From Flavobacteriales bacterium (lineage in GTDB: Bacteria > Bacteroidota > Bacteroidia > Flavobacteriales_E > Vicingaceae), in the NCBI GenBank assembly GCA_020635825.1, contig JACJZA010000026.1:1-29908 (forward strand): DNA of 29,908 nt, in the 5' to 3' direction. Numbering within the stretch: position 1 is the first letter of the stretch; the number at the start of each line of letters is the position of its first letter. Below, in pieces: positions 1,265 to 25,223 of the stretch. The position numbers were made by a program, and so were the translations under genes. Under the pieces are notes generated by a model. It was not told the DNA's origin. It made no database searches and worked only from the letters and a program-made list of their open reading frames with translations.

Positions 1265-2068
1265 TTATTTAACATCCATAAGTTCTACATCAAAAATGAG
1301 CGTTGCTTTTGCCGGTATAATTGGCGGATAACCTCTTTCACCATACCCTAAATCGTGCGGAATAATTAAACGAGCCTTCTCTCCTACTTTTAGTAAAGCA
1401 ATTCCTTCATCCCATCCTTTTATTACTCTTCCTTGCCCACAGGGAAATTCTAATGGTTGTCCTCTTTCCACAGAAGAATCAAACATACTTCCATCTTCTA
1501 AATATCCCGAATAATGTACACTTACATTTTTGTTAGCAGCAGCAGATACTCCATCTGTTTCATTTAGTTTAATGTATTTTAATCCGCTAGCTGTTGTAAT
1601 AGTATCTTTCCCTTCTACATTAAATGGCTTCGGTGCTTCCATAATATCCAACAATTCCACATCAAAAATTAATGTTTCATTAGGTCCAATAATACCTCCA
1701 GCTCCTTTTTCACCATAAGCTAAGTCAGAAGGAATAGTAAAAGTTGCTTTATCACCAACATTTAACAAAGCAATTCCTTCATCCCATCCTTTTATTACTT
1801 GACCTACACCTAATTTAAAAGAAAAAGGTTGACCTCTATTTACCGAACTATCAAAAACACTATCGTTGGTTAGTTTACCGGTATAATGCACCACTACTTT
1901 GTCTCCATTTTGTGGTTGTTCTCCGGTTCCCTTTTCAGTTATTACATATTTTAATCCCGATTCCGTTGTGTATTCTTTTCCCACTTTTACTTTTTTTTGC
2001 GCCAACCCTTGTGTTGTGCTAAAAGCTACAACCATTGTCAGCAATGTTATTTTTATTGTCTTAATCAT
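1265..2068 (-). CDS. Exported FKBP-type peptidyl-prolyl cis-trans isomerase with two tandem FKBP domains
   Basis: Signal peptide MIKTIKITLLTMVVAFSTTQGLAQ. Two copies of the FKBP signature are present (VIKGWDEGIALLNVGDKATFTIPSDLAYGEKG and VIKGWDEGIALLKVGEKARLIIPHDLGYGERG). The start overlaps the upstream stop by 8 nt. Confidence 0.92.
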   Translation of the reverse strand: MIKTIKITLLTMVVAFSTTQGLAQKKVKVGKEYTTESGLKYVITEKGTGEQPQNGDKVVVHYTGKLTNDSVFDSSVNRGQPFSFKLGVGQVIKGWDEGIALLNVGDKATFTIPSDLAYGEKGAGGIIGPNETLIFDVELLDIMEAPKPFNVEGKDTITTASGLKYIKLNETDGVSAAANKNVSVHYSGYLEDGSMFDSSVERGQPLEFPCGQGRVIKGWDEGIALLKVGEKARLIIPHDLGYGERGYPPIIPAKATLIFDVELMDVK

Positions 2069-2813
2069 TTACAGAAATTAATTCTACTTCAAAAACCAGA
2101 GGCATAAATTTTTTAATTGGTCCCTCTCCATTTTGAGGAGGATTAGAACCATAAGCCAATTGTTGAGGAATAAAGAAACGATATTTAGCTCCTTCTTTCA
2201 TTAATTGTAACCCTTCTGTCCATCCTTTTATTACTTGATTCAATCCAAAAGTAGCTGGTTTTCCTCTATTAATGGAACTGTCGAAAATAGTTCCTTCAGG
2301 GGTAGTTCCTTGGTAATGAACAGTAACACTAGATGTAGCAGTTGGAGTTTTACCTGTTCCTTCTGTCAATACAACATATTGTAAACCACTTTCGGTAACT
2401 TGTACTCCTTCTTTACTTTTATTTTCCTCTAAAAATGCCAAACCATCTTTTGCAATCTTTTCGTATTCTTTTAACTTAATGTTGTTAACCGAATCTGATT
2501 TTGCTTTAAAGAAAGCCATCACATATGGACGCATCGCATCAACATCTATGTAAGTTTTTTCATTTTCCATCCCATCTTTAATTCCCATAATAATGGCATC
2601 AATATTGGCTTCAGAAAAATCTTTTTTAAGATTTAAAGCCATGTTCATTCCCACACCATAACTTACTGAGTCGATTTTATTCTTTAAAACAATCTCAGCT
2701 TTTACTTCTTCTTTTTTAACGTTTTTCTTTTTTTGAGCAATTGCATTTACTGATAAAAACATCATTATAAATGCAAACAATAATGTTTGGATTGTTCTTT
2801 TATTCATAAGCAT
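2061..2813 (-). CDS. FKBP-type PPIase with FkpA/Mip-like N-terminal helical domain
   Basis: Signal peptide, helical N-domain and a C-terminal FKBP domain (VHYQGTTPEGTIFDSS...VIKGWTEGLQLMKEGAKYRFFIPQQLAYG). The C-terminal half closely resembles the next gene, as in a tandem duplicate. Confidence 0.92.
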   Translation of the reverse strand: MLMNKRTIQTLLFAFIMMFLSVNAIAQKKKNVKKEEVKAEIVLKNKIDSVSYGVGMNMALNLKKDFSEANIDAIIMGIKDGMENEKTYIDVDAMRPYVMAFFKAKSDSVNNIKLKEYEKIAKDGLAFLEENKSKEGVQVTESGLQYVVLTEGTGKTPTATSSVTVHYQGTTPEGTIFDSSINRGKPATFGLNQVIKGWTEGLQLMKEGAKYRFFIPQQLAYGSNPPQNGEGPIKKFMPLVFEVELISVND

Positions 2814-2816
2814 ATT

Positions 2817-3545
2817 TTACTCGTTTACTTTGATTAATTCTACTTCAAATACCAACGGCATAAATGGCTTAATTGGCCCACCCGGTCTTGGGTTAGCACC
2901 GTAAGCTAATTCTTGAGGAATAAAAAATCTATATTTTGAACCTTCACTCATTAACTGTAAACCTTCTGTCCATCCTGGTATTACTTGATTTAAATTAAAG
3001 GTAACTGTTTCACCTCTTTCAACTGAACTTTCAAAAACTGTACCATCAGGAGTTGTTCCATGATAATGTACTTCGACAGATGATTGAGGACTAGAAGGCT
3101 TTTTACCTTTCCCTTCTTTCATTACTAAATATTGTAAACCACTAGCAGTAACTTGCACTCCTTCTTTTGTTTTATTCTCTTCTAAAAACTTCTCTCCTTC
3201 AATTCTTATTTGACCGTATTGTTCTTCAGCCATTCGTTGAGCTTCTTGTTGTTGCTTTTCCATTGCTTCTTGTTGCTTCTTTTGGAAAAAAGGCTGTAAA
3301 ACACCTTCTAATTCTTCTGTAGAAATCAACATATCAGCAGAATCTAATACATCTATAAACCCTTTTACCCATGCATCTTTATTTACTTCAGAAAAATTTT
3401 GAAGTATATTGGTACCTGTATAAGCACCGTAACTATAACTTACTGAATCAATTTCATTATTTAATGTTACGTTAGCGTGTTCATTATTTCCTCCACATGC
3501 AACTAATAAAGATGCTGCACAAGCATAAAAAGTTATTTTTTTCAT
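2817..3545 (-). CDS. Lipoprotein FKBP-type PPIase with FkpA/Mip-like N-domain
   Basis: Lipobox LLVAC near the N-terminus. FKBP domain VHYHGTTPDGTVFESS...VIPGWTEGLQLMSEGSKYRFFIPQELAYG. Confidence 0.92.
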   Translation of the reverse strand: MKKITFYACAASLLVACGGNNEHANVTLNNEIDSVSYSYGAYTGTNILQNFSEVNKDAWVKGFIDVLDSADMLISTEELEGVLQPFFQKKQQEAMEKQQQEAQRMAEEQYGQIRIEGEKFLEENKTKEGVQVTASGLQYLVMKEGKGKKPSSPQSSVEVHYHGTTPDGTVFESSVERGETVTFNLNQVIPGWTEGLQLMSEGSKYRFFIPQELAYGANPRPGGPIKPFMPLVFEVELIKVNE

Positions 3546-3550
3546 TTTGT

Positions 3551-4381
3551 TTATTTAATTTTTGTTATTTCTAAATTATACATTATCGGGCTATAAGGTG
3601 GTACAATACCTGTACTCGAACCCTTATCTCCAAACGCGAGTTGCGAAGGTATGATTATTTTTGCTTTTTCACCATTTTTCATGGTTTTTAACACTTTATC
3701 AAATCCTTCTATTACCTGACCTGGAGTACCATAAACATACTCAAAATCTTGATTGGTTTTAGTAGAATCAAAAGCTACTCCATTTATAAAACTACCCAAG
3801 TATTTAAGATATACCGTATCTCCTTTTTTTATAAAATCCCCCTTCCCTTCTTGAATGGTTTTCTTTAATACATTGCCTTCATTAACAAATCCTTTATCTT
3901 CTTTGAGTATTTCCTTCAAAATAAGTTGCTCAATTAATTCCTCATCATAGTTGTTTATCTGATTTTGATATTCTTCTTCATTATAAAAACGATGAAGTTT
4001 TACTGCTATTTTTAGATATTCTGAATTATTTGACACAAAGCCCAAACTATTTGAGTTAAATATTTCTTGCCCCATTAAAAATTCAGCACTATCCCCTTCA
4101 TTTAATTGCTTAAAGAGTTCGTCAAAATCATTTTCTTTGGGCTGATATAAATGATATTTAAAAATTTGATAAATCAAATCATCTTTTTGATTGAGCACTT
4201 TTAATGAAACACTAACATAATTACCTTTTTCATATGATTTAGAAGCAGCTTCACCTTCAAATTCAAAAGATAAGAGCTTAAAATAAGTTTCATTTCCTAA
4301 ATTCTCATAACCATCAAATTTAGACTGACATGAAAATAAAAAAATTACAATGAAGAAGTAAAATATTTTTCTCAACATCAT
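3551..4381 (-). CDS. Lipoprotein with unknown N-terminal domain and C-terminal FKBP-type PPIase domain
   Basis: Lipobox LFSC. The C-terminus YLGSFINGVAFDST...VIEGFDKVLKTMKNGEKAKIIIPSQLAFGDKG is FKBP-like. It shares 1 nt (TAATG) with the upstream gene stop. Confidence 0.85.
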   Translation of the reverse strand: MMLRKIFYFFIVIFLFSCQSKFDGYENLGNETYFKLLSFEFEGEAASKSYEKGNYVSVSLKVLNQKDDLIYQIFKYHLYQPKENDFDELFKQLNEGDSAEFLMGQEIFNSNSLGFVSNNSEYLKIAVKLHRFYNEEEYQNQINNYDEELIEQLILKEILKEDKGFVNEGNVLKKTIQEGKGDFIKKGDTVYLKYLGSFINGVAFDSTKTNQDFEYVYGTPGQVIEGFDKVLKTMKNGEKAKIIIPSQLAFGDKGSSTGIVPPYSPIMYNLEITKIK

Positions 4382-4911
4382 TATTTCAATGCAATTAATT
4401 CAATATCATAAATAATGGTTGAGCGAATCGGAATTTTTTCAAAATCACCAGCCAATCCATGTGCTAAATGAGATGGAATAATTATTTTAGCTTTATCTCC
4501 CACATGTAAATAAGTAATTCCTTCGTGTAGCCCACTTTCTACATTGTCTTCTCCTATTTTAAATTCTTCAGGGCCATTTTCTTCGGTAGAATAGCATTTT
4601 TGTCCATTCAATAAAGAAACTTCGTATTTCACCACAGCTATCTTTCCATTTTCAGCTTTTTCTCCATTTCCTTTCTCATAAATTTGATAACGTAATCCTG
4701 TACCAGTTTTAATCACGTCAAGACTCCTCCTTCTCACATACCCGTCTATCTGTAATGATTCTTTTTCGGCTGCAATTTTATTAGCATCAATTAATACTTC
4801 TTTTAATTCTTCTTTTAATTCTTCAGGATTGTTATGATAAAGAGGATTAGAATCGTTTTCTGAATGACATGCTAAAAGTGAAATAATAATTATAAAATAC
4901 AGAAACCTCAT
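4381..4911 (-). CDS. Small lipoprotein FKBP-type PPIase, divergent active-site region; possibly the gliding-motility GldI type
   Basis: Lipobox LLAC. FKBP fold motifs YEVSLLNGQKCYST...VESGLHEGITYLHVGDKAKIIIPSHLAHG. Its 176-aa size and lipoprotein nature match what I recall of GldI, but orthology cannot be shown here. There is an ATGA overlap with nrnA. Confidence 0.8.
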   Translation of the reverse strand: MRFLYFIIIISLLACHSENDSNPLYHNNPEELKEELKEVLIDANKIAAEKESLQIDGYVRRRSLDVIKTGTGLRYQIYEKGNGEKAENGKIAVVKYEVSLLNGQKCYSTEENGPEEFKIGEDNVESGLHEGITYLHVGDKAKIIIPSHLAHGLAGDFEKIPIRSTIIYDIELIALK

Positions 4912-12615: not shown

Positions 12616-13569
12616 ATGAAAATTTTAGCAAACGATGGCATTTCTGCCATGGGTAAAAAACAATTAGAAGAAAACGGATTTACAGTTGTTACGGAAACTG
12701 TTCCTCAAGAAAATTTAATCAACGAAATTAATAAAGAAGGATACGTTGCTTTATTAGTGAGAAGTGCAACTAAAGTTCGTACTGACATTATTGATGCCTG
12801 CCCAAGCTTGAAATTAATCGGACGTGGTGGTGTTGGAATGGATAATATTGATGTCGAACATGCACGTGAAAAAGGATTACATGTTATTAATACACCTGCT
12901 TCTTCATCACAATCTGTAGCAGAACAAGTAATGGCTCATCTTTTTAGCTGTGCTCGTTTTTTATATGATTCTAATCGTCACATGCCAATTGATGGTGTTT
13001 CTAATTTTAACGGATTAAAAAAGAAATATGGTAAAGGAATAGAATTACGTGGAAAAACTATTGGAATTATAGGTTTTGGAAGAATTGGACAAGCGACAGC
13101 TAAATACGCGCTAGGTTGTGGAATGAACATCATAGCATTTGACCCATATATGGAAAAAGCGACCATCAAAGTTGAAGTAGCTAACCAAACAGTAAATGTA
13201 GATATTAAGACATCTTCTATGGAAGAGTTGTTGGGCAATTCGGATTTCATTACCATGCATATTCCAGCACAAGCTGATGGAAAGCCTGTTATTGGTAATA
13301 ATGAATTTTCAAAAATGAAAGATGGAGCAATAGTTGTAAATGCAGCTCGTGGTGGTGTAATTGATGAAGATGCATTGATTGAAAATTTAAATTCTGGAAA
13401 AGTTGCACATGCAGCTCTTGATGTATTTGTTAACGAACCTACCCCTCGTGAAGATTTGTTAAAGCACCCAAAAATTTCTTTAACACCTCATACCGGTGCT
13501 GCCACTTTAGAAGCTCAGGATAGAATTGGAGAAGAATTAGCTAGTCAAATTAAAGAATTACTTGGATAA
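12616..13569 (+). CDS. serA: D-3-phosphoglycerate dehydrogenase (short form, no ACT domain)
   Basis: Rossmann motif GIIGFGRIGQATA and catalytic region NAARGGVIDE...LTPHTGA. It is adjacent to serC. Confidence 0.85.
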   Translation: MKILANDGISAMGKKQLEENGFTVVTETVPQENLINEINKEGYVALLVRSATKVRTDIIDACPSLKLIGRGGVGMDNIDVEHAREKGLHVINTPASSSQSVAEQVMAHLFSCARFLYDSNRHMPIDGVSNFNGLKKKYGKGIELRGKTIGIIGFGRIGQATAKYALGCGMNIIAFDPYMEKATIKVEVANQTVNVDIKTSSMEELLGNSDFITMHIPAQADGKPVIGNNEFSKMKDGAIVVNAARGGVIDEDALIENLNSGKVAHAALDVFVNEPTPREDLLKHPKISLTPHTGAATLEAQDRIGEELASQIKELLG

Positions 13570-13573
13570 CTTA

Positions 13574-13585
13574 TAAACCACATAG
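13574..13585 (+). repeat. Left arm of 12-bp perfect inverted repeat bracketing the GxxExxY gene
   Basis: taaaccacatag here is the exact reverse complement of ctatgtggttta at 14029-14040. Confidence 0.8.
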
Positions 13586-13597
13586 ACATTATAGCAG

Positions 13598-14011
13598 TTG
13601 ACTTTAACTCAAAAATATCTTGACGAATTAACTTATGAAGTTGTTGGAGCAGCTATTGAAGTTCATAAAGTTATGGGAAAGGGATTATTAGAAAGTGTTT
13701 ATCATGAATGTTTAAAAGAAGAGTTGAACCATAGAAAAATAAATTTTTTATCAGAGTTCAACATTCCTGTTACATACCGAAATAAAGAATTAGAAATTGC
13801 TTTTAGATGTGATTTGTATATTGAAAATTGTTTAGTTGTTGAATTAAAAGCTGTTCAAGACTATGCCCCTATCTTTGAAGCGCAGCTTCTTAACTATATG
13901 AAACTTTTAAAAGCTCCAAAGGGAATTTTAATCAATTTTAATTGTAATAACATTTTTCATGAAGGTCAAAAAACATTTGTTAATGAATATTTTAGCCAAC
14001 TTCCTAAATAA
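13598..14011 (+). CDS. GxxExxY family protein (PD-(D/E)XK nuclease-like small protein)
   Basis: TTG start. The name-giving motif is present in VGAAIEVHKVMGKGLLESVYHECL, and the nuclease-like core is CDLYIENCLVVELKAV. Confidence 0.85.
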   Translation: MTLTQKYLDELTYEVVGAAIEVHKVMGKGLLESVYHECLKEELNHRKINFLSEFNIPVTYRNKELEIAFRCDLYIENCLVVELKAVQDYAPIFEAQLLNYMKLLKAPKGILINFNCNNIFHEGQKTFVNEYFSQLPK

Positions 14012-14028
14012 TAAAATTATTTATGTTA

Positions 14029-14040
14029 CTATGTGGTTTA
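14029..14040 (-). repeat. Right arm of the 12-bp inverted repeat bracketing the GxxExxY gene
   Basis: ctatgtggttta is the reverse complement of 13574-13585. A further acat match follows inward after a 2-nt gap. Confidence 0.8.
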
Positions 14041-14059
14041 ACCATAAACAAAATATAAG

Positions 14060-15304: not shown

Positions 15305-15317
15305 AATCACCTAAATT

Positions 15318-15384
15318 TGTCATGCTGAGCCTGTCGAAGTATAGACAAATTTTCTATTTATTCTTCGATAAACTCAGAATGACA
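15318..15384. repeat. Palindromic REP-like intergenic element (tgtcat-ctgag family), copy 1
   Basis: The sequence is tgtcatgctgagcctgtcgaag ... cttcgataaactcagaatgaca. The ends are 11/12 complementary and the inner tcgaag/cttcga also pair. It shares both termini with the element at 25078-25214. Confidence 0.75.
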
Positions 15385-15398
15385 TAGAAAATAACAAA

Positions 15399-16068: not shown

Positions 16069-17808
16069 CTATTGCTTCACAATTTTCTGAATTTTCACAA
16101 AGTATTCCGTTCTAACTTCAATAAAATAAACTCCTTTTGGCACATCTAATTTTAGTTCACAAAGAGATGAGTTAAAATAACTTTTTGATTGAATAACATT
16201 TCCTTTAACATCTAATAATTTCAATTCAACCGTTTCATAATTTTTTTCTAATTCTATTTTTACATTATCTAAAAAAGGATTTGGATAAACTTTAGTGTTC
16301 AAAACTTGATTAATACCATCCTTCACACCAACTGATTCATCTGTACTTAAACACAATACTAGAGGTTGCCAGACTAATTCAGAAGGAAAATGAATATCAA
16401 TATCGTTACTTGGATTTAAATCAACAGTATCTGCTATGGCTCCAACTAAATATAAGTTACCATTTACACCAGCACTAAAAGAAAAAAAGGATTCACGATT
16501 ATTATTGGGTTCAAACCAACCTCCTACCCATAGAAAATTTCCATTAGAATCTAATTGTTGTATAAACGAATCGTAAGAATTTGGGCCAGAAGTTAAGTTA
16601 ACAACACCTGGTCCTGGGTCAAAATCAACTGTTTCTCTAAATTCTCCAACCACTATTGTATTACCATTTTCATCAAAAATTACTAAATCAGGATCTTGAG
16701 GAAAATTGGAGCTGTCTTTATAAGTTGCATGCCATTTATAAACTCCAGCACTATCATATTTAACGACAAAACCATCTCTATTCACTGATGTTGTATTGAT
16801 ATAAACCGGCGGATTATTTAACCCAATATTCGTTGACTCATAAAACTCACCAACAATTGAAATGTTGTTCATTTCATCAATTGCCATATCATTAAAATCA
16901 ACTATATTGAAACTTACCATAGAACCAGCCCAAATTAATTCTCCGTTTGGTGTATATTTTTGAATACATAAATTTCTCATTTCGGGATCAGGTGTTATAA
17001 GATTATAAACTCCTGCACTTGGATCTACATCAACTGTATCCCTAAAATATCCCGAAACATACATGTTATCATCCGAATCTACTTTAACCGCTCTAAATAA
17101 GTTAGCAGCACCCTCTTTTCCTTGTTTATGATGCCATAGATAATTACCATCAGAATCATATTTTGCTACATAGGTATCTTGAATACCTAAACAATTAATC
17201 ATAACTGAAGACGCTCCGGGATCAACATCCATATTACCTTTAAAACCTCCTACTATATAAAAATCCCCACTACTATTAACAGCAATATCATCTGCTCCTA
17301 AAAAAGATACAACATCACTTTCAAATACTTTACCCCATAAATAAGCACCATTCGAATCTAATTTTACAACAAATACATTGTTTTCTTCTATCGATATAAC
17401 ATCATCTGTGCCTATTCCCGGGTTTAAATCTATGTTATAATCATAGGCACCTAAAATGTAAACGTTATTATCAACAGATACTTCAATAGTTATACTTTGA
17501 CAAAAACCTGAGTTATTAACAGTTTCAAAATCCTCTCCCCAAATAAAATCTCCCTCAGAAGTATATTTTGCTATAAATATAGCTCCATCTATATTAGTAA
17601 AATTTGCAATTCCCGGACCCGGGTCTAAATCTATGGTTCCTAAATAATCACCAATCACATAAAAGTTCCCTGATTTGTCTGTTGCAATATCTACAATATA
17701 ACCACCATTATTATCAACATCTAATGATTTAGCCCAGCTATAATTAGGCAATTGAGCATGTATGTTTAAGCTCAAACATAAAACAAAGAAAAATAAAAAG
17801 TATCTCAT
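16069..17808 (-). CDS. Secreted beta-propeller repeat (SBBP-like) protein with T9SS type A C-terminal sorting domain
   Basis: Signal peptide, then about 6 or more repeats ending in D(L/V)(D/N)PG-type motifs (TIDLDPGPG, NIDLNPGIG, NMDVDPGAS, TVDVDPSAG, TVDFDPGPG, TVDLNPSND). The C-terminus KVYPNPFLDNVKIEL...GVYFIEV is typical of T9SS cargo. Confidence 0.85.
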   Translation of the reverse strand: MRYFLFFFVLCLSLNIHAQLPNYSWAKSLDVDNNGGYIVDIATDKSGNFYVIGDYLGTIDLDPGPGIANFTNIDGAIFIAKYTSEGDFIWGEDFETVNNSGFCQSITIEVSVDNNVYILGAYDYNIDLNPGIGTDDVISIEENNVFVVKLDSNGAYLWGKVFESDVVSFLGADDIAVNSSGDFYIVGGFKGNMDVDPGASSVMINCLGIQDTYVAKYDSDGNYLWHHKQGKEGAANLFRAVKVDSDDNMYVSGYFRDTVDVDPSAGVYNLITPDPEMRNLCIQKYTPNGELIWAGSMVSFNIVDFNDMAIDEMNNISIVGEFYESTNIGLNNPPVYINTTSVNRDGFVVKYDSAGVYKWHATYKDSSNFPQDPDLVIFDENGNTIVVGEFRETVDFDPGPGVVNLTSGPNSYDSFIQQLDSNGNFLWVGGWFEPNNNRESFFSFSAGVNGNLYLVGAIADTVDLNPSNDIDIHFPSELVWQPLVLCLSTDESVGVKDGINQVLNTKVYPNPFLDNVKIELEKNYETVELKLLDVKGNVIQSKSYFNSSLCELKLDVPKGVYFIEVRTEYFVKIQKIVKQ

Positions 17809-17841
17809 CTTATTTTATTAACTAATAGTGCAATCTCTTAC

Positions 17842-17872
17842 CAAAGATAGTTATTAGTTAATCATTAACAAA
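17842..17872 (-). promoter_or_regulatory. Bacteroidota sigma-A promoter (-33 TTTG / -7 TATCTTTG) of the T9SS cargo gene
   Basis: The minus strand reads TTTG-19 nt-TATCTTTG, with 33 nt to the ATG at 17808. Both boxes and the spacing fit the published consensus TTTG/TAnnTTTG. Confidence 0.6.
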
Positions 17873-17875
17873 GTA

Positions 17876-17906
17876 TTGACTTTATCCTTTAAAAACGCTA
17901 ACTTCG
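17876..17906 (+). repeat. Left arm of 31-bp imperfect inverted repeat
   Basis: ttgactttatc-ctttaaaaa-cgctaacttcg. 27/31 positions are identical, ungapped, to the reverse complement of 18137-18167. Confidence 0.85.
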
Positions 17907-18136
17907 TTTGACACTTTATGTAAGTGCAATTAAAAAAGCACCAACACAGACGTTATGAGTAATTACTAGGCTACAAGAGGCAATCAAGCTATATTTTTGA
18001 GTGATGGTAGGTTATTTTAAGCAAGTGCGTTTTAGGATAAATAAAGTGGATAAACTCCTCTTTATTAAGTCTGGCGGTAATACCGTAGAGAAGTTTCACT
18101 TATCAGACGAGTAGTATCGTCTCACAGACTTACAGT

Positions 18137-18167
18137 CGAAGTTAGCGATTTTTAATGACAAAGTCAA
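18137..18167 (-). repeat. Right arm of 31-bp imperfect inverted repeat
   Basis: The plus strand reads cgaagttagcg-atttttaat-gacaaagtcaa. The match comprises an 11/11 block, a 6/9 spacer and a 10/11 block. The arms enclose 230 bp. Confidence 0.85.
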
Positions 18168-18357
18168 GTATTTAGCTAACTTAAAAAAGACTAAAACACT
18201 TTTAACTTGGTTAAAATAGACTACTTATTTTTTTTTCATCACTCACTCATTTTTAACGCTACATACACAGGGTTTATATTTCATAAAAAATGATAAAAAT
18301 ATAGGTTTGATGACCTTGTTGTTTTTTGCTGTAGTCTAGCAACTAGTAGAGCTTTAC

Positions 18358-18391
18358 CTTCTTTAATTGAAAAGAAAATTGATTAAAGAAG
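18358..18391. other. Perfect 10-bp stem-loop (cttctttaat / attaaagaag, 14-nt loop)
   Basis: Read directly from the sequence. It lies in the ORF-free gap upstream of the ydeI-like gene. Confidence 0.7.
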
Positions 18392-18395
18392 TAGA

Positions 18396-18444
18396 TTAAC
18401 TCCTTTGATAGAATACTGATTATTTTCGGAGTTAAATAAACTCC
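18396..18444. other. Mutually exclusive pairings: ttaactcc (18396-18403) or aactcc (18439-18444) with ggagttaa (18428-18435)
   Basis: There is an 8-bp helix with a 24-nt loop versus a 6-bp helix with a 5-nt loop, and both use the same GGAGTT segment. Neither is followed by a U-tract. Confidence 0.5.
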
Positions 18445-18498
18445 TCATAACATCTTATAAATTCAATTTTATCAAAAGAATCTTTAACTTTAGTCCCA

Positions 18499-18554
18499 TT
18501 AAGATAAAGTCAGCTTCTTTTATTAAAACTACGCTAACGCTGAATTTATCTTAA
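18499..18554. other. Interrupted stem-loop or operator-like palindrome just upstream of the ydeI-like ATG
   Basis: ttaagataaa-gt-cagc (18499-18514) pairs with gctg-aa-tttatcttaa (18539-18554). That gives 10 bp, a 2x2 internal loop and 4 bp, with a 24-nt apical loop, ending 34 nt before the ATG. Confidence 0.6.
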
Positions 18555-18588
18555 CGTCAAACGAAAATCATTAACTTCACTTCTAAAA

Positions 18589-19239
18589 ATGAGACACCAA
18601 ATAGACGAATATTATAACCAAGCACCTTTTTGGCAAAAAGAAATGCAAGTATTAAGAAGTTTGGCCTTAGGTTGTAGTTTAAGTGAAGAATTTAAATGGA
18701 AACAAGCTTGTTATACTTTTCAGAACAAAAACATATTTATCATCAGTGCTTTTAAAAATTATTGTGCGCTCAACTTTTTTAAAGGTGCTTTACTAAGCGA
18801 CACTGAAAACATTTTAATCAAAGCAGGCGAAAACTCACAAGCGGGTCGTCAACTACGCTTTACTTCTGTAAAAGAGATTGTGGAAAATGAAGCCATTATC
18901 AAAGCATACATTTTTGAAGCCATAGAAATAGAAAAAGCCGGGCTTGAAATTAACTACAAAAAAACCGCTGAATTTGATGTTCCCGAAGAGTTACAAGAAT
19001 TTTTTAGCAAAGACAAAAAATTTGAAAAAGCCTTTAAGAGTTTAACTCCAGGTAGACAAAGAGGTTATTTGTTGTTTTTCGCTGCTGCCAAACAATCGAA
19101 AACCAAAAACGAAAGAATCGAAAAATATGTGGGTAGAATTATGAATGGAAAAGGAATTCATGATTGTGTTTGTGGGTTATCCAAGAAAATGCCCAATTGT
19201 GATGGTTCACATAAGCAACTAAAAGAAAATCAGAAATAA
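18589..19239 (+). CDS. DUF1801/YdeI-OmpD-associated family protein fused to a C-terminal CDGSH iron-sulfur motif
   Basis: The body resembles YdeI-type proteins (LTPGRQRGYLLFF, ERIEKYVGRIMNGKG). The last 30 aa carry CVCGLSKKMPNCDGSHK, which is the CxC...S...PxCDGSH signature. Confidence 0.75.
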   Translation: MRHQIDEYYNQAPFWQKEMQVLRSLALGCSLSEEFKWKQACYTFQNKNIFIISAFKNYCALNFFKGALLSDTENILIKAGENSQAGRQLRFTSVKEIVENEAIIKAYIFEAIEIEKAGLEINYKKTAEFDVPEELQEFFSKDKKFEKAFKSLTPGRQRGYLLFFAAAKQSKTKNERIEKYVGRIMNGKGIHDCVCGLSKKMPNCDGSHKQLKENQK

Positions 19240-20129
19240 ATTGCTTTAAATTCGGTTGTCCCATTGCTGTTTATTTCCAACGCAGGGAAAGGAAACTTAA
19301 TAAACCCAAAAGCACCCAAAAGAGTATTAGCGAACTTGCTCTTGGTTTTTATTCGGGTTAAATCCACATCCAACGAAAGATAAAACTGGCGAGTTCGTGG
19401 TGTAGCACTGTAATCAAAAGTTGTTCCGTCTTTTTCAAATACATTATCGTGTCCTCCATACATTCCATCGGCACCATAACCCACTGCAAAATTCAACCAT
19501 TTAGGGAATTTTGTTTCATCCCCTAAAAAAGAAGCGATATTTGCACTCAGCCAATAAGTTTGTCCATTGTAATCTTTTAGCAATTGTTCGTTTAAATTGC
19601 TTCCTAATAAGTTGGGACGAACAGATGGGTAATCAGTGGTATGAAAAGAATATTTGAGCAAAACCCGTTGTTCGTGCCAAGCCAATTGCTGACCAATAAA
19701 TAAAGCCGAACCGGTTGTATTGGCTATCATATCTCCGGTAGAAAAACCCCAATCGGCAGAGTAAGCATCAAACATTTCTACCGAGCTCAACAAAAACAAA
19801 CCCAATGTTCCTCCATACCAAGTTGATTTTTTTTCATTCACTCCACTCCATCTCAATACTTCATAACCGGCTTTTCCCACATAATAAGAAGTCATGGTGT
19901 GCCCCATTTTATCCATTTGCAACCACTCGTTGTTGTCGTTAAAAAAGTGAAAAGAACTTTTTGGAACGCCTTTATACCACAATTGGTTTAACCCTACCAT
20001 CGTGGCAGTATACATTCCGGCTTCAACAGCAACAACTGTTGTTAATCTTTTTTTATTGAGCGTATCGAGTTGGGAGAAACAAGGTTTAGAATGAAAAAAA
20101 CAGCATAATAATAATACCACTATCTTCAT
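19230..20129 (-). CDS. DUF2279-like exported protein
   Basis: I prefer the start at M32 (cat at 20127-20129). It gives the signal-like MKIVVLLLCCFFHSKPCFSQ. The 31 aa added in the ORF track are just a translation of the GC-rich repeat at 20162-20195. The family name is recalled from FHFFNDNNEWLQMDKMGH. Confidence 0.7.
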   Translation of the reverse strand: MKIVVLLLCCFFHSKPCFSQLDTLNKKRLTTVVAVEAGMYTATMVGLNQLWYKGVPKSSFHFFNDNNEWLQMDKMGHTMTSYYVGKAGYEVLRWSGVNEKKSTWYGGTLGLFLLSSVEMFDAYSADWGFSTGDMIANTTGSALFIGQQLAWHEQRVLLKYSFHTTDYPSVRPNLLGSNLNEQLLKDYNGQTYWLSANIASFLGDETKFPKWLNFAVGYGADGMYGGHDNVFEKDGTTFDYSATPRTRQFYLSLDVDLTRIKTKSKFANTLLGAFGFIKFPFPALEINSNGTTEFKAIYF

Positions 20130-20161
20130 CTTATTTAAAGTAAAATATGAGAAACATAAAA

Positions 20162-20195
20162 CTCCCCCTTTATAAAAGGGGGTTGGGGGGATTTT
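20162..20195 (+). repeat. GC-rich three-arm element, copy C (C-arm/loop/G-arm/spacer/G-arm)
   Basis: ctCCCCCtttataaaaGGGGGttGGGGGGatttt. The stem is cccccttt/aaaggggg. It encodes the last 7 codons (NPPNPLL) of the DUF559 ORF. Confidence 0.85.
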
Positions 20196-20553
20196 GCTCT
20201 TTATTATCAATCCACAATTCAATTGTTCTTAAAACATTATTTAATTCAGTTTTTACTTCTTTATCGTCAAATCTAAGAAAAATCAAACCGTAACTTTCTA
20301 ATTCGCTTTGTCTTTTTAAATCTTCTTCATATTTGTAATGGTGACTATCTCCATCAATTTCTATTACTAGATTTAAAGGCTTACAATAAAAGTCAACAAT
20401 ATAATTTAATAATGGCTTTTGCCGATTGAATGTATAACCTTTCATTTGTTTTGCTCGCAAAGATTTCCATAATATTATCTCAGAAAGTGTTGAGTCATTT
20501 CGTAGTTTCCGAGAAAATTCTTTAAGATTTTTGTTATAAGGAATGTGTTTCAT
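20170..20553 (-). CDS. DUF559 (Vsr-like endonuclease fold) domain protein
   Basis: Core LNLVIEIDGDSHHY and GLIFLRFDDKEV are typical of DUF559. The 127-aa ORF is bracketed within 5 nt by the GC-rich elements. Confidence 0.85.
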   Translation of the reverse strand: MKHIPYNKNLKEFSRKLRNDSTLSEIILWKSLRAKQMKGYTFNRQKPLLNYIVDFYCKPLNLVIEIDGDSHHYKYEEDLKRQSELESYGLIFLRFDDKEVKTELNNVLRTIELWIDNKEQNPPNPLL

Positions 20554-20556
20554 TTT

Positions 20557-20589
20557 AATCCCCCTCAGTCCCCCTTAATAAGGGGGATT
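20557..20589 (-). repeat. GC-rich three-arm element, copy D (inverted relative to copy C)
   Basis: aatCCCCCTcagTCCCCCttaataaGGGGGAtt. It contains the perfect 19-bp palindrome tcccccttaataaggggga, starts 4 nt upstream of the DUF559 ATG and ends 1 nt before the OmpA-like stop. Confidence 0.85.
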
Positions 20590-20590
20590 G

Positions 20591-22546
20591 CTAATTTGCA
20601 ATCACCTTAAATTCTGTACGACGATTTTCTGCTCTACCTTCCTCTGTATCGTTAGAAGCAATTGGTTGAGCATCGCCATAACCTTTAGTGGTTAAACGGT
20701 CAGTAGGAACTCCATTTTGAGTAAGGTAATTATAAACGGCTTTAGCACGATTCTCAGAAAGCAATTGATTCGATTTTTTATCACCTACATTATCAGTATG
20801 TCCACTTAACTCAATTTTTAAATTAGGATTAGCCTTTAAAAAAGCAATTAACTTATCTAATTCCACTTTCGACTGAGGTTTTAAATCGTATTTAGCGGTT
20901 TCGAAAAATACATTTTTTAGCACCACACTCTCACCCACTTTTATTTTGTTCATTCCTACGTGTTTTTCAAAAGGCTTATCAATTGTTCCTGAACTCAAAG
21001 TGAAATTTTCAGAATGGAATAAATATCCTGGATGAGAAACGTTTAAAGCATAATCTTGATGAACAGGTAAGCAAACTAAATATTTTCCTGTTACTTCATC
21101 AGCATAAGATTGAACAGCTACTTCTCCAGTTTTTAAATTAATTAATTCAAAACGAGCTGGTAACACTTCTTTGGTTTCTGCATCAAAAACTTTACCTGCT
21201 AAATATGTTACTTTATTGGGTTTCATGTTTTCAGGTAATTCAAAAGCATATAAATCTAAATCACCCATTCCACCCTCTCTATTACTGGCAAAATAGGCAA
21301 GATTACCAGCAGCATCAACTAACAAACTGTTTTCATCATTAAAAGTATTTATTGGATAGCCTAAATTAACAGGAGTCGTCCAATTTCCATTAGCATCTTT
21401 GGTACTCATAAAAATATCTAAACCACCCATACCCGGATGACCATCTGATGAAAAATAAAGGGTTTGATTATCTGGATGTATAAAAACCGATTCCTCTCTA
21501 CCTTCAGTATTAATTACATCACTCAACCTAGTAGGAACAGACCAAACACCACCTTCACTCAACTCACTGGTCCATATATCTTGTTGTTTTACTCCACTTC
21601 TACTTCTCATGCCTCTTACAAAGTACAAAGTTTTTCCATCAGAAGAAAAGGAAGGTTGGCTTTCCCAATGTTGGGAATTAATTGGCCTATTTAAGTTTTT
21701 AGGAGCAGTCCATTTTCCACCAATATTATAGGCATAAAACAAATCACAACTTCCAAAGCCTTTTCTATCAGGTCCATAGCCTTCATAAGGATCTTCACAA
21801 CTTGTAAAAATGATGAATTGTCCATTTGGAGAAATGGTTGGTGCTCCTTCGTTATTAATACTATTTATTCCTTGCATATTTTGAGCTTCCATCCAATTGT
21901 AACCATCATTAATACTTAAATAAAAGTCTTCATTATAGCCTGTATATGTTTTTTTAGAATCCAATCTTCTGGTAAACAACAAATATTTACCATCAGCCGA
22001 AAGAGCAGGAAAATATTCTGGTAATTCAGTATTAACTCCTGCTCCCAAATTAACTGGGTTAAACGGTACAGGATGTTTTAAAGCTTCGATGGCAAACTCA
22101 CAATCTTTCAATCCCTTTTCAGCAAAAGGTTTCATCATTAAAGGTGAATCCGTAAATTTTAAATAATTGATAAAATTAGTTTGAGCTTTTTCATACTCTC
22201 CTTTATTCAACAATAACATACCTAATGAAGCATGAGCATCAGGGAAAAGATCACTCTTTATGGCAATAGATTTCTGATAATGTTCTATGGCTTTGTCATA
22301 ATCAGGTTTTTCGGTATAAACATAAGCCAGTAACAATTCTGCTTCAGCAAAATTGGGGTCTTTTTCTAATGCCTGAATAAAAGTAATTTCTGCCAATTCG
22401 TTATTACGCATATCGTAATGATTTTTGCCTTCTTCGTAAAGCTTAATGGCTTTTTTATTGTTGCTTGTATAATTTTTTTCTTGTGCTTTACAGGAAATAA
22501 AAGCCACCATAAAAGAAAAGACAAAAAGAAAATGTGAAATGCGCAT
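20591..22546 (-). CDS. OmpA-family protein with N-terminal TPR repeats and TolB/PD40-like beta-propeller repeats
   Basis: Lipobox-like AFISC, and TPR-like repeats in aa 30-150. The C-terminal OmpA domain carries LSGHTDNVGD...NQLLSENRAKAV...GRAENRRTEFKV. Confidence 0.88.
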   Translation of the reverse strand: MRISHFLFVFSFMVAFISCKAQEKNYTSNNKKAIKLYEEGKNHYDMRNNELAEITFIQALEKDPNFAEAELLLAYVYTEKPDYDKAIEHYQKSIAIKSDLFPDAHASLGMLLLNKGEYEKAQTNFINYLKFTDSPLMMKPFAEKGLKDCEFAIEALKHPVPFNPVNLGAGVNTELPEYFPALSADGKYLLFTRRLDSKKTYTGYNEDFYLSINDGYNWMEAQNMQGINSINNEGAPTISPNGQFIIFTSCEDPYEGYGPDRKGFGSCDLFYAYNIGGKWTAPKNLNRPINSQHWESQPSFSSDGKTLYFVRGMRSRSGVKQQDIWTSELSEGGVWSVPTRLSDVINTEGREESVFIHPDNQTLYFSSDGHPGMGGLDIFMSTKDANGNWTTPVNLGYPINTFNDENSLLVDAAGNLAYFASNREGGMGDLDLYAFELPENMKPNKVTYLAGKVFDAETKEVLPARFELINLKTGEVAVQSYADEVTGKYLVCLPVHQDYALNVSHPGYLFHSENFTLSSGTIDKPFEKHVGMNKIKVGESVVLKNVFFETAKYDLKPQSKVELDKLIAFLKANPNLKIELSGHTDNVGDKKSNQLLSENRAKAVYNYLTQNGVPTDRLTTKGYGDAQPIASNDTEEGRAENRRTEFKVIAN

Positions 22547-25070: not shown

Positions 25071-25077
25071 TTTAATT

Positions 25078-25214
25078 TGTCATCCTGAGCAAAGCTTTAT
25101 CTCCATTAAAGTGTAGGAATAAAACGCTGCGAAGATTTTTTTTTTTAGATTCTTCACTTTATTTTGTTCACACTTCGATAAACTCAGCGTGACAAAATTG
25201 CGTTCAGAATGACA
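25078..25214. repeat. Composite REP-like element (tgtcat-ctgag family), copy 2, with duplicated 3' end
   Basis: It starts tgtcatcctgagc and contains cttcgataaactcagcgtgaca (25173-25194), which shares 15 identical nt with copy 1. A second terminus ttcagaatgaca lies at 25203-25214. It fills the ilvC-ilvA spacer. Confidence 0.75.
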
Positions 25215-25223
25215 TTTATACTA

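Follow-up and report, generated by a model that had tools for sequence, protein, structure and literature searches.

A long hairpin-rich spacer upstream of ydeI in a Flavobacteriales bacterium, read as a recent scar of gene loss

Why should a bacterium that otherwise packs its genes closely leave 780 bp of apparently empty, strongly self-complementary DNA between two divergent genes? The question is raised by a contig of a metagenome-assembled genome (MAG) deposited at NCBI as Flavobacteriales bacterium, the whole of which (JACJZA010000026.1; 29,908 nucleotides) forms the window analysed here. The gap, at 17809-18588, lies between a gene for a cargo protein of the type IX secretion system (T9SS), at 16069-17808 on the minus strand and with a Por_Secre_tail domain, and a ydeI gene, at 18589-19239 on the plus strand, which encodes a YdeI-type protein with DUF1801 and OmdA domains and a weak C-terminal CDGSH match, below threshold. 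A preliminary description of this DNA, made from its letters, named the same flanking genes and offered four readings of the gap: structured non-coding RNA, a long structured leader for ydeI, a non-autonomous mobile element, or a DNA inversion switch. We found that the gap is best explained as a recent, lineage-specific deletion–replacement scar, in a variable islet of the chromosome between yggS and ydeI, made up of relic promoter DNA and orphan filler and with no dedicated RNA function, an explanation that we consider probable, although with modest confidence.

The basic description of the gap was confirmed. It contains no open reading frame (ORF) of 60 amino acids or more and, at five times the length of the next-largest spacer, it does stand out in a window whose remaining spacers are all 153 bp or shorter. 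The largest ORFs within it encode 36-37 amino acids from GTG starts, and a search for these two as called genes found neither on record. The NCBI accessions of the two flanking proteins are consecutive (MCB9336283.1 and MCB9336284.1), so that the depositor, too, annotated no coding sequence in the gap, and a six-frame Pfam scan of it returned no family at E ≤ 1. Its content of inverted repeats exceeds chance.

The evidence that carries our explanation comes from close relatives. Two other NCBI MAGs, L069 and L070, are collinear with the window to the left and right of the gap, at 86-92% DNA identity, and in both the interval from the T9SS gene to ydeI is occupied by three genes: a Na/Pi cotransporter gene on the minus strand (557 amino acids), a lipoprotein gene on the plus strand (228 amino acids, with a lipoprotein-type signal) and, also on the plus strand, a gene for a flavodoxin-like reductase (223 amino acids, Flavodoxin_2/FMN_red), the stop codon of which abuts the ATG of ydeI. 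The flavodoxin-like gene likewise abuts ydeI in L080, the closest relative (93.8% identity over ydeI-DUF2279), and because so close a relative keeps it, its loss is recent and specific to the lineage of the window. In the more distant L073, the upstream genes of which are 87-88% identical and the YdeI protein 74% identical, we found a different T9SS-tail gene (835 amino acids) and an 81-bp spacer, holding a terminator, before ydeI. When the interval from yggS to ydeI is compared (window 16069-18588, L069 4817-10000 and L073 5243-7965), its gene content differs each time; the contents found in L069, L070, L080 and L073 together indicate that it is a local plasticity zone or hotspot, from which three genes were lost in the lineage of the window. 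Further afield, among GTDB species representatives the best match to the YdeI protein was 61% identical and not syntenic, and 60 more distant loci showed no synteny either.

At the T9SS end of the gap, BLAST homology between the window and L069 breaks off at 17809 and is picked up again at 17836. The 27 nucleotides in between (17809-17835, assigned to the minus strand) show weak similarity, by eye only, to L069 6557-6590 and are probably the remainder of the T9SS-Na/Pi spacer together with the first bases of the deleted Na/Pi ORF. The following stretch, 17836-17963, is homologous to the divergent intergenic promoter region that lies between the Na/Pi and lipoprotein genes of L069: 84 of 87 positions are identical at 17836-17922 (L069 8264-8350), a level above that of the flanking coding DNA, falling to 26 of 41 at 17923-17963, after which the homology gives out where L069 has the lipoprotein ATG. 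The leftward half of this relic (17836-17875, minus strand) corresponds in the alignment to the former Na/Pi promoter, and it contains a Bacteroidetes-type -7 box, TATCTTTG, reading leftward at 17849-17842 and also present in L069. Because the Na/Pi ORF was excised almost exactly, this box now stands 33 nucleotides from the ATG of the T9SS gene, and it is probably the present promoter of that gene, for which it is a candidate by motif match.

The adjoining 31 nucleotides (17876-17906, plus strand) have the form TTG-N20-TAACTTCG and agree with L069 8304-8334 at 30 of 31 positions; in L069 the promoter-like 31-mer is single-copy and lies about 55 nucleotides upstream of the lipoprotein ATG. They are followed, at 17907-17963 on the plus strand, by what is left of the 5' untranslated region of the lipoprotein gene, over which the L069 homology fades. 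The same 31 nucleotides form the left arm of the long inverted repeat to which the preliminary description had drawn attention. The right arm, at 18137-18167 on the minus strand, is an inverted and diverged copy, complementary to the left arm at 27 of 31 positions across an intervening 230 nucleotides (E = 4.7e-4 by self-BLAST) and matching the L069 element at 28 of 31; all four mismatches between the arms lie between the TTG and TAACTTCG boxes. Since the element is single-copy in L069, and since its second copy here is inverted and differs only in the spacer, we take the pairing to represent a duplicated promoter-like element rather than an RNA helix. The Bacteroidota sigma-A promoter has the pattern -33 TTTG / -7 TAnnTTTG. 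The 31-mer resembles it in its TTG-N20-TAACTTCG layout, with ends that are kept between the copies and a spacer that varies, but its -7 box is one mismatch from the consensus and the promoter is predicted by motif.

We also noted that three of the four GCTAACTT octamers in the window fall in the gap (17897-17904, 18139-18146 and 18175-18182), although the motif was picked after the fact and its enrichment has little weight. Two of the three are the -7-like part of the repeat arms, and the third forms, with the right arm, an 8-bp palindrome, AAGTTAGC-N28-GCTAACTT.

At the other end of the gap, 18553-18588 (plus strand) is what remains of the DNA upstream of the lost flavodoxin-like gene, translation-initiation region included, and it now joins the ATG of ydeI directly. 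The region is 81% identical over 42 nucleotides to L069 9271-9312 and is partly common to the ydeI upstream region of L073, and in L069 and L080 the flavodoxin-like gene sits between its homologue and ydeI. The gap is thus not conserved in relatives that keep both of its flanks, and about 190 bp of it are the remnant of spacer and regulatory regions of the lost genes.

What remains is an orphan, AT-rich and non-coding block of 586 bp (17964-18552), in the position once taken up by the lipoprotein gene with its terminator. The inverted 31-mer is its only DNA match in L069-L080, and comparison of the gap DNA with plasmids and phages gave no match either; searches of JGI metagenomes and IMG/VR with exact patterns of 21-31 nucleotides, taken from the left junction, the hairpin core and the repeat consensus, also found nothing. 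No second copy was present in the 30-kb window or in 80 fetched loci. That the block might be a decayed gene was rejected, because neither Pfam nor a tblastn search of it with the three lost proteins (Na/Pi cotransporter, lipoprotein and flavodoxin-like) left a trace and because its stop codons are distributed as in random sequence, with 13 stops in the best frame (11.9 expected) and a longest open run of 44 codons (54 expected). An origin of replication was likewise rejected: a single 8/9 match to the DnaA box was found in the gap, the boxes occur in the window at chance frequency, and the block is missing from the relatives.

From these comparisons the history of the locus may be reconstructed as follows. 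The ancestral order would have been the T9SS cargo gene and the Na/Pi cotransporter gene, both reading leftward, followed by the lipoprotein, flavodoxin-like reductase and ydeI genes, all reading rightward. The three middle ORFs are gone from this lineage, and what is left is the divergent promoter region at 17836-17963, the flavodoxin upstream region at 18553-18588 fused to the start codon of ydeI, and, where the lipoprotein gene stood, the 586-bp block. The T9SS gene would now be driven directly by the leftward -7 box (17849-17842), formerly of the Na/Pi promoter. The gene immediately upstream of ydeI is gone, and no canonical -7 box lies within 280 nucleotides of it; transcription that begins at the rightward promoter-like element, or at one of two -7-like boxes (17992 and 18302), would probably run through into ydeI, no terminator being predicted on the way. 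The leftward copy of the 31-mer could add antisense or T9SS-directed transcription, and the hairpins would be DNA-level palindromes of an AT-rich filler rather than a conserved structured RNA.

Several observations weigh against this explanation. No source of the block was found in the searches above, and a simple deletion makes no new sequence. The local self-complementarity of the 586-bp block exceeds chance. Conservation in the rightward half of the relic promoter has stayed at 97% although the gene that it served is gone, and this half could, to judge from that, still be functional. The TAnnTTTG pattern is no more frequent in the window than expected by chance, the promoter assignments being motif matches only. 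There are also the breaks seen in public sequencing runs. We compared the window with Logan contigs (k=31 assemblies) of the identical strain from runs SRR12358675, SRR12358676, SRR15882951 and SRR17907852, and found seven, from the four runs, that are exact substrings of it. Their distal ends vary from run to run, whereas the ends that face the block do not: of the left-hand contigs three end at 17958 and one at 17940, and the right-hand contigs all start at 18528. Breaks that recur in this way in a k=31 graph imply a branch, and single-copy, monomorphic filler would not cause them. Either the block (17929-18557, allowing for the k-1 overlap) is repeated elsewhere, or there is a second allele that diverges at 17959 and 18527. 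A clean deletion allele joining 17958 to 18528 was rejected as the cause, as it predicts a right-hand start at 18527 rather than 18528, but the argument is a weak one.

The rival that survives best takes these breaks as its starting point: the 586-bp core, or 17929-18557, would be a non-autonomous mobile or strain-variable non-coding cassette, multi-copy or allelic, which replaced the lipoprotein gene and brought with it an outward-facing promoter-like sequence. We regard this as possible but, on balance, doubtful. Beyond the breaks, it is favoured by the lack of a homologue of the block in the closest relatives, by the abundance of nested and interleaved inverted repeats, and by other small insertions that the same lineage has gained, including two miniature inverted-repeat transposable element (MITE)-like elements with TGTCATYCTGAGC termini. 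The absence of a second copy from all the collections searched above counts against it, as does the MAG assembler having read through the block, contrary to what is expected of a long exact repeat. No terminal inverted repeats were found at the ends inferred from the contig breaks, and a 16-nucleotide pair (17949-64 and 18543-58) overlaps sequence also present in the block-free relative. GTAT flanks both 31-bp arms, the left GTAT being ancestral, and in the relatives the position is taken by a gene instead of an empty site. The left arm itself is ancestral promoter DNA and not a transposon end. Of the four readings in the preliminary description, the mobile element is the one that may yet hold, for the 586-bp core. 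Among the 28 ORFs of at least 90 amino acids in the 30 kb (overlapping antisense ORFs excluded), Pfam identified no recombinase, transposase or reverse transcriptase. An alternative allele carrying this strain's own lipoprotein, Na/Pi or flavodoxin orthologue was not found in the protein collection, where this strain is missing from the 90% clusters to which the three lost proteins belong and the nearest homologues of the lost lipoprotein are at most 74% identical and belong to unrelated organisms. The fullest form of the proposal, in which a block of about 570-630 bp is an undescribed hairpin-rich non-coding cassette, multi-copy or allelic in natural populations of this uncultured species, carrying an inward- or outward-facing copy of a host promoter, replacing the lipoprotein gene and rewiring the transcription of both the T9SS cargo gene and ydeI, seems to us rather unlikely.

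The lipoprotein search brought to light one further observation. The homologue of 74% identity belongs to an unrelated organism and lies on contigs some 1.2 kb long (L074-L077), one of which was seen in 18 samples, and all four begin at the same base. L074 has the same 30-mer at both ends (1-30 and 1222-1251), which suggests that contigs of this type represent a circular or tandemly repeated unit.

A second rival keeps an RNA function for the gap, either as a lineage-specific small RNA (for example, at about 18006-18236 on the plus strand) or as a long regulatory leader of ydeI with ACTCC/GGAGT hairpins, and we consider it quite unlikely. The pairing features on which the preliminary description had relied are real. 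All were found where it had placed them: besides the 31-nucleotide repeat, a 7-bp pairing, TGTAAGT/ACTTACA, just inside the arms (17919-17925 with 18128-18134) and a hairpin at 18105-18122, both read from the sequence; and, as AT-rich local hairpins, a perfect 10-bp stem at 18358-18391, mutually exclusive TTAACTCC/GGAGTTAA/AACTCC pairings at 18396-18444, and a stem at 18499-18514 / 18539-18554, measured here as 16 nucleotides with 94% pairing. To these we add a second long-range inverted repeat, at 18007-18026 / 18205-18224 (17 of 20 positions), followed by a run of T at 18226-18236. This second repeat (18007-18236) surrounds a cluster of three hairpins (18065-18131) as well as the right arm of the 31-nucleotide repeat, and because it interleaves with the latter the two cannot both form as nested helices. 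In favour of a small RNA, a TATTTTTG -7 box lies at 17992-17999, eight nucleotides before the 5' arm of the 20-nucleotide closing helix, which is itself followed by T9, and 18003-18238 folds with z = -5.3 on the plus strand relative to shuffled sequence. Two further points in favour are the mutually exclusive hairpins and the lack of any canonical -7 box nearer to ydeI than 18302.

The folding, however, is not strand-specific. On the minus strand the value for 18003-18238 is -5.7, and 17870-18175 gives -5.0 on the plus and -5.9 on the minus strand; in 150-nucleotide sliding windows over 18000-18600 the values are mostly -1 to -3.5 on both strands, whereas the flanking coding sequences, in windows of the same length, are mostly within about ±2 and centred near 0. 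The excess is the same on both strands, as expected of palindromes in the DNA and not of a strand-specific RNA. A covariance-model search against Rfam (6S, transfer-messenger RNA, RNase P, signal recognition particle RNA, riboswitches and Flavobacteria motifs included) found no family in the whole window at gathering score, and even at E ≤ 10 the best hit in 17700-18700 reached 21.5 bits against a threshold of 56 bits, which is chance level. ARAGORN detected no tRNA or transfer-messenger RNA. No terminator was predicted on either strand of 17600-18800, although canonical GC-rich terminators do occur in the relatives and are used elsewhere in the lineage. For 17964-18552 none of the searches described above found a homologue, leaving nothing on which covariation could be measured, and the block is missing from all the relatives, including the one at 94% identity. 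The orthologues of ydeI manage without a long leader, the gene being abutted by its neighbour in L069 and L080 and preceded by the short terminator-bearing spacer in L073. The preliminary description stands in so far as the gap is non-coding and unusually palindromic, but none of the functional readings attached to it gained supporting evidence.

That the MAG contig joins the two flanks through a misplaced or chimeric middle is very unlikely. Only the MAG contig shows the block, and the four independent k=31 assemblies do stop at its edges, but both flanks are neighbours in the relatives too, the composition matches that of the genome, and the inverted repeat, at 27 of 31 positions, is imperfect, unlike that of a chimeric fold-back artefact. 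Least credible of all is an invertible switch, in which recombination between the 31-bp arms would invert the 230 bp that they enclose and so point a promoter at the T9SS gene or at ydeI. In its favour, the repeat lies between divergent genes and has arms similar to a -33/-7 promoter. Against it, the promoter copies are the arms themselves and not a sequence between them, the arms match at only 87%, and no invertase or integrase is encoded in the 30 kb. All four left-hand Logan contigs leave the left arm at its inner edge and run on for 34-52 nucleotides, always in the same orientation, which also excludes inversion at this repeat as the cause of the breaks. Inversion at the break points was rejected too, as neither junction sequence is the reverse complement of the other.

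The lineage has rearranged elsewhere in the window too, differing from L069 by four further indels, which favours the scar explanation. The rest of the window encodes housekeeping functions: genes of the ilv operon, aminotransferase and dehydrogenase genes of serine-pathway type, recR and five FKBP isomerases. The last are five FKBP-type peptidyl-prolyl isomerase genes in a row on the minus strand (1265-4911), several of which overlap or lie 5 bp or less apart. The next-largest spacers, 15308-15395 and 25076-25222, are both insertions relative to L069, and both end in inverted TGTCATYCTGAGC-like termini (15318-30 / 15372-84 and 25078-90 / 25202-14, respectively). Six hits to the TGTCATYCTGAGC-like motif were observed, a number reached by none of 100 shuffles, and the insertions, of 67 and 137 bp, look like a small MITE-like family; the motif was not found in the gap or in the 80 fetched loci. 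Two nuclease-like genes are also insertions relative to L069, namely a PDDEXK_3 gene at 13598-14011 (region 13560-14059), absent from L068 and L073 as well, and a DUF559/Vsr-like gene at 20170-20553 (region 20088-20591), with a CCCCC...GGGGG hairpin on either side (at about 20164-20190 and 20559-20587); both are probably selfish mini-elements. We looked for a link between the orphan block and either the TGTCATYCTGAGC mini-elements or the PDDEXK_3 and DUF559 insertions and found none.

The locus carries a caution, in that a long, ORF-free and hairpin-rich spacer in a tight genome mimics a non-coding RNA locus; here a single syntenic relative sufficed to show a scar of three-gene loss with re-used promoter DNA. 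If the second allele or the extra copies are real, the gap would be a small example of the turnover of promoter-carrying non-coding DNA in an uncultured Flavobacteriales population. Among known systems, the invertons of Bacteroidota share with it inverted repeats of 20-30 bp set a few hundred base pairs apart between genes, one flank being a secreted surface protein, but differ in that the gap has no nearby recombinase, shows one orientation in four assemblies and has arms that look like a duplicated promoter. Like MITEs, the block is short, AT-rich, non-coding and hairpin-rich, is absent at the relatives' site and breaks short-read assemblies at its edges, although its inferred ends show no terminal inverted repeats or clear target-site duplication, no second copy was found in the sequences searched, and one 31-bp arm lies in the ancestral flank. 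The scars of gene loss differ from it in one respect, namely that here a sourceless and unusually palindromic 586 bp replaces one of the lost genes. In the others it agrees with them, as the interval differs among close relatives, the core is unconserved, and the promoter and 5' regions of the deleted genes persist and are re-used by their neighbours; in kind, the feature is an ordinary one, the probable scar of lost genes in an islet of variable content.

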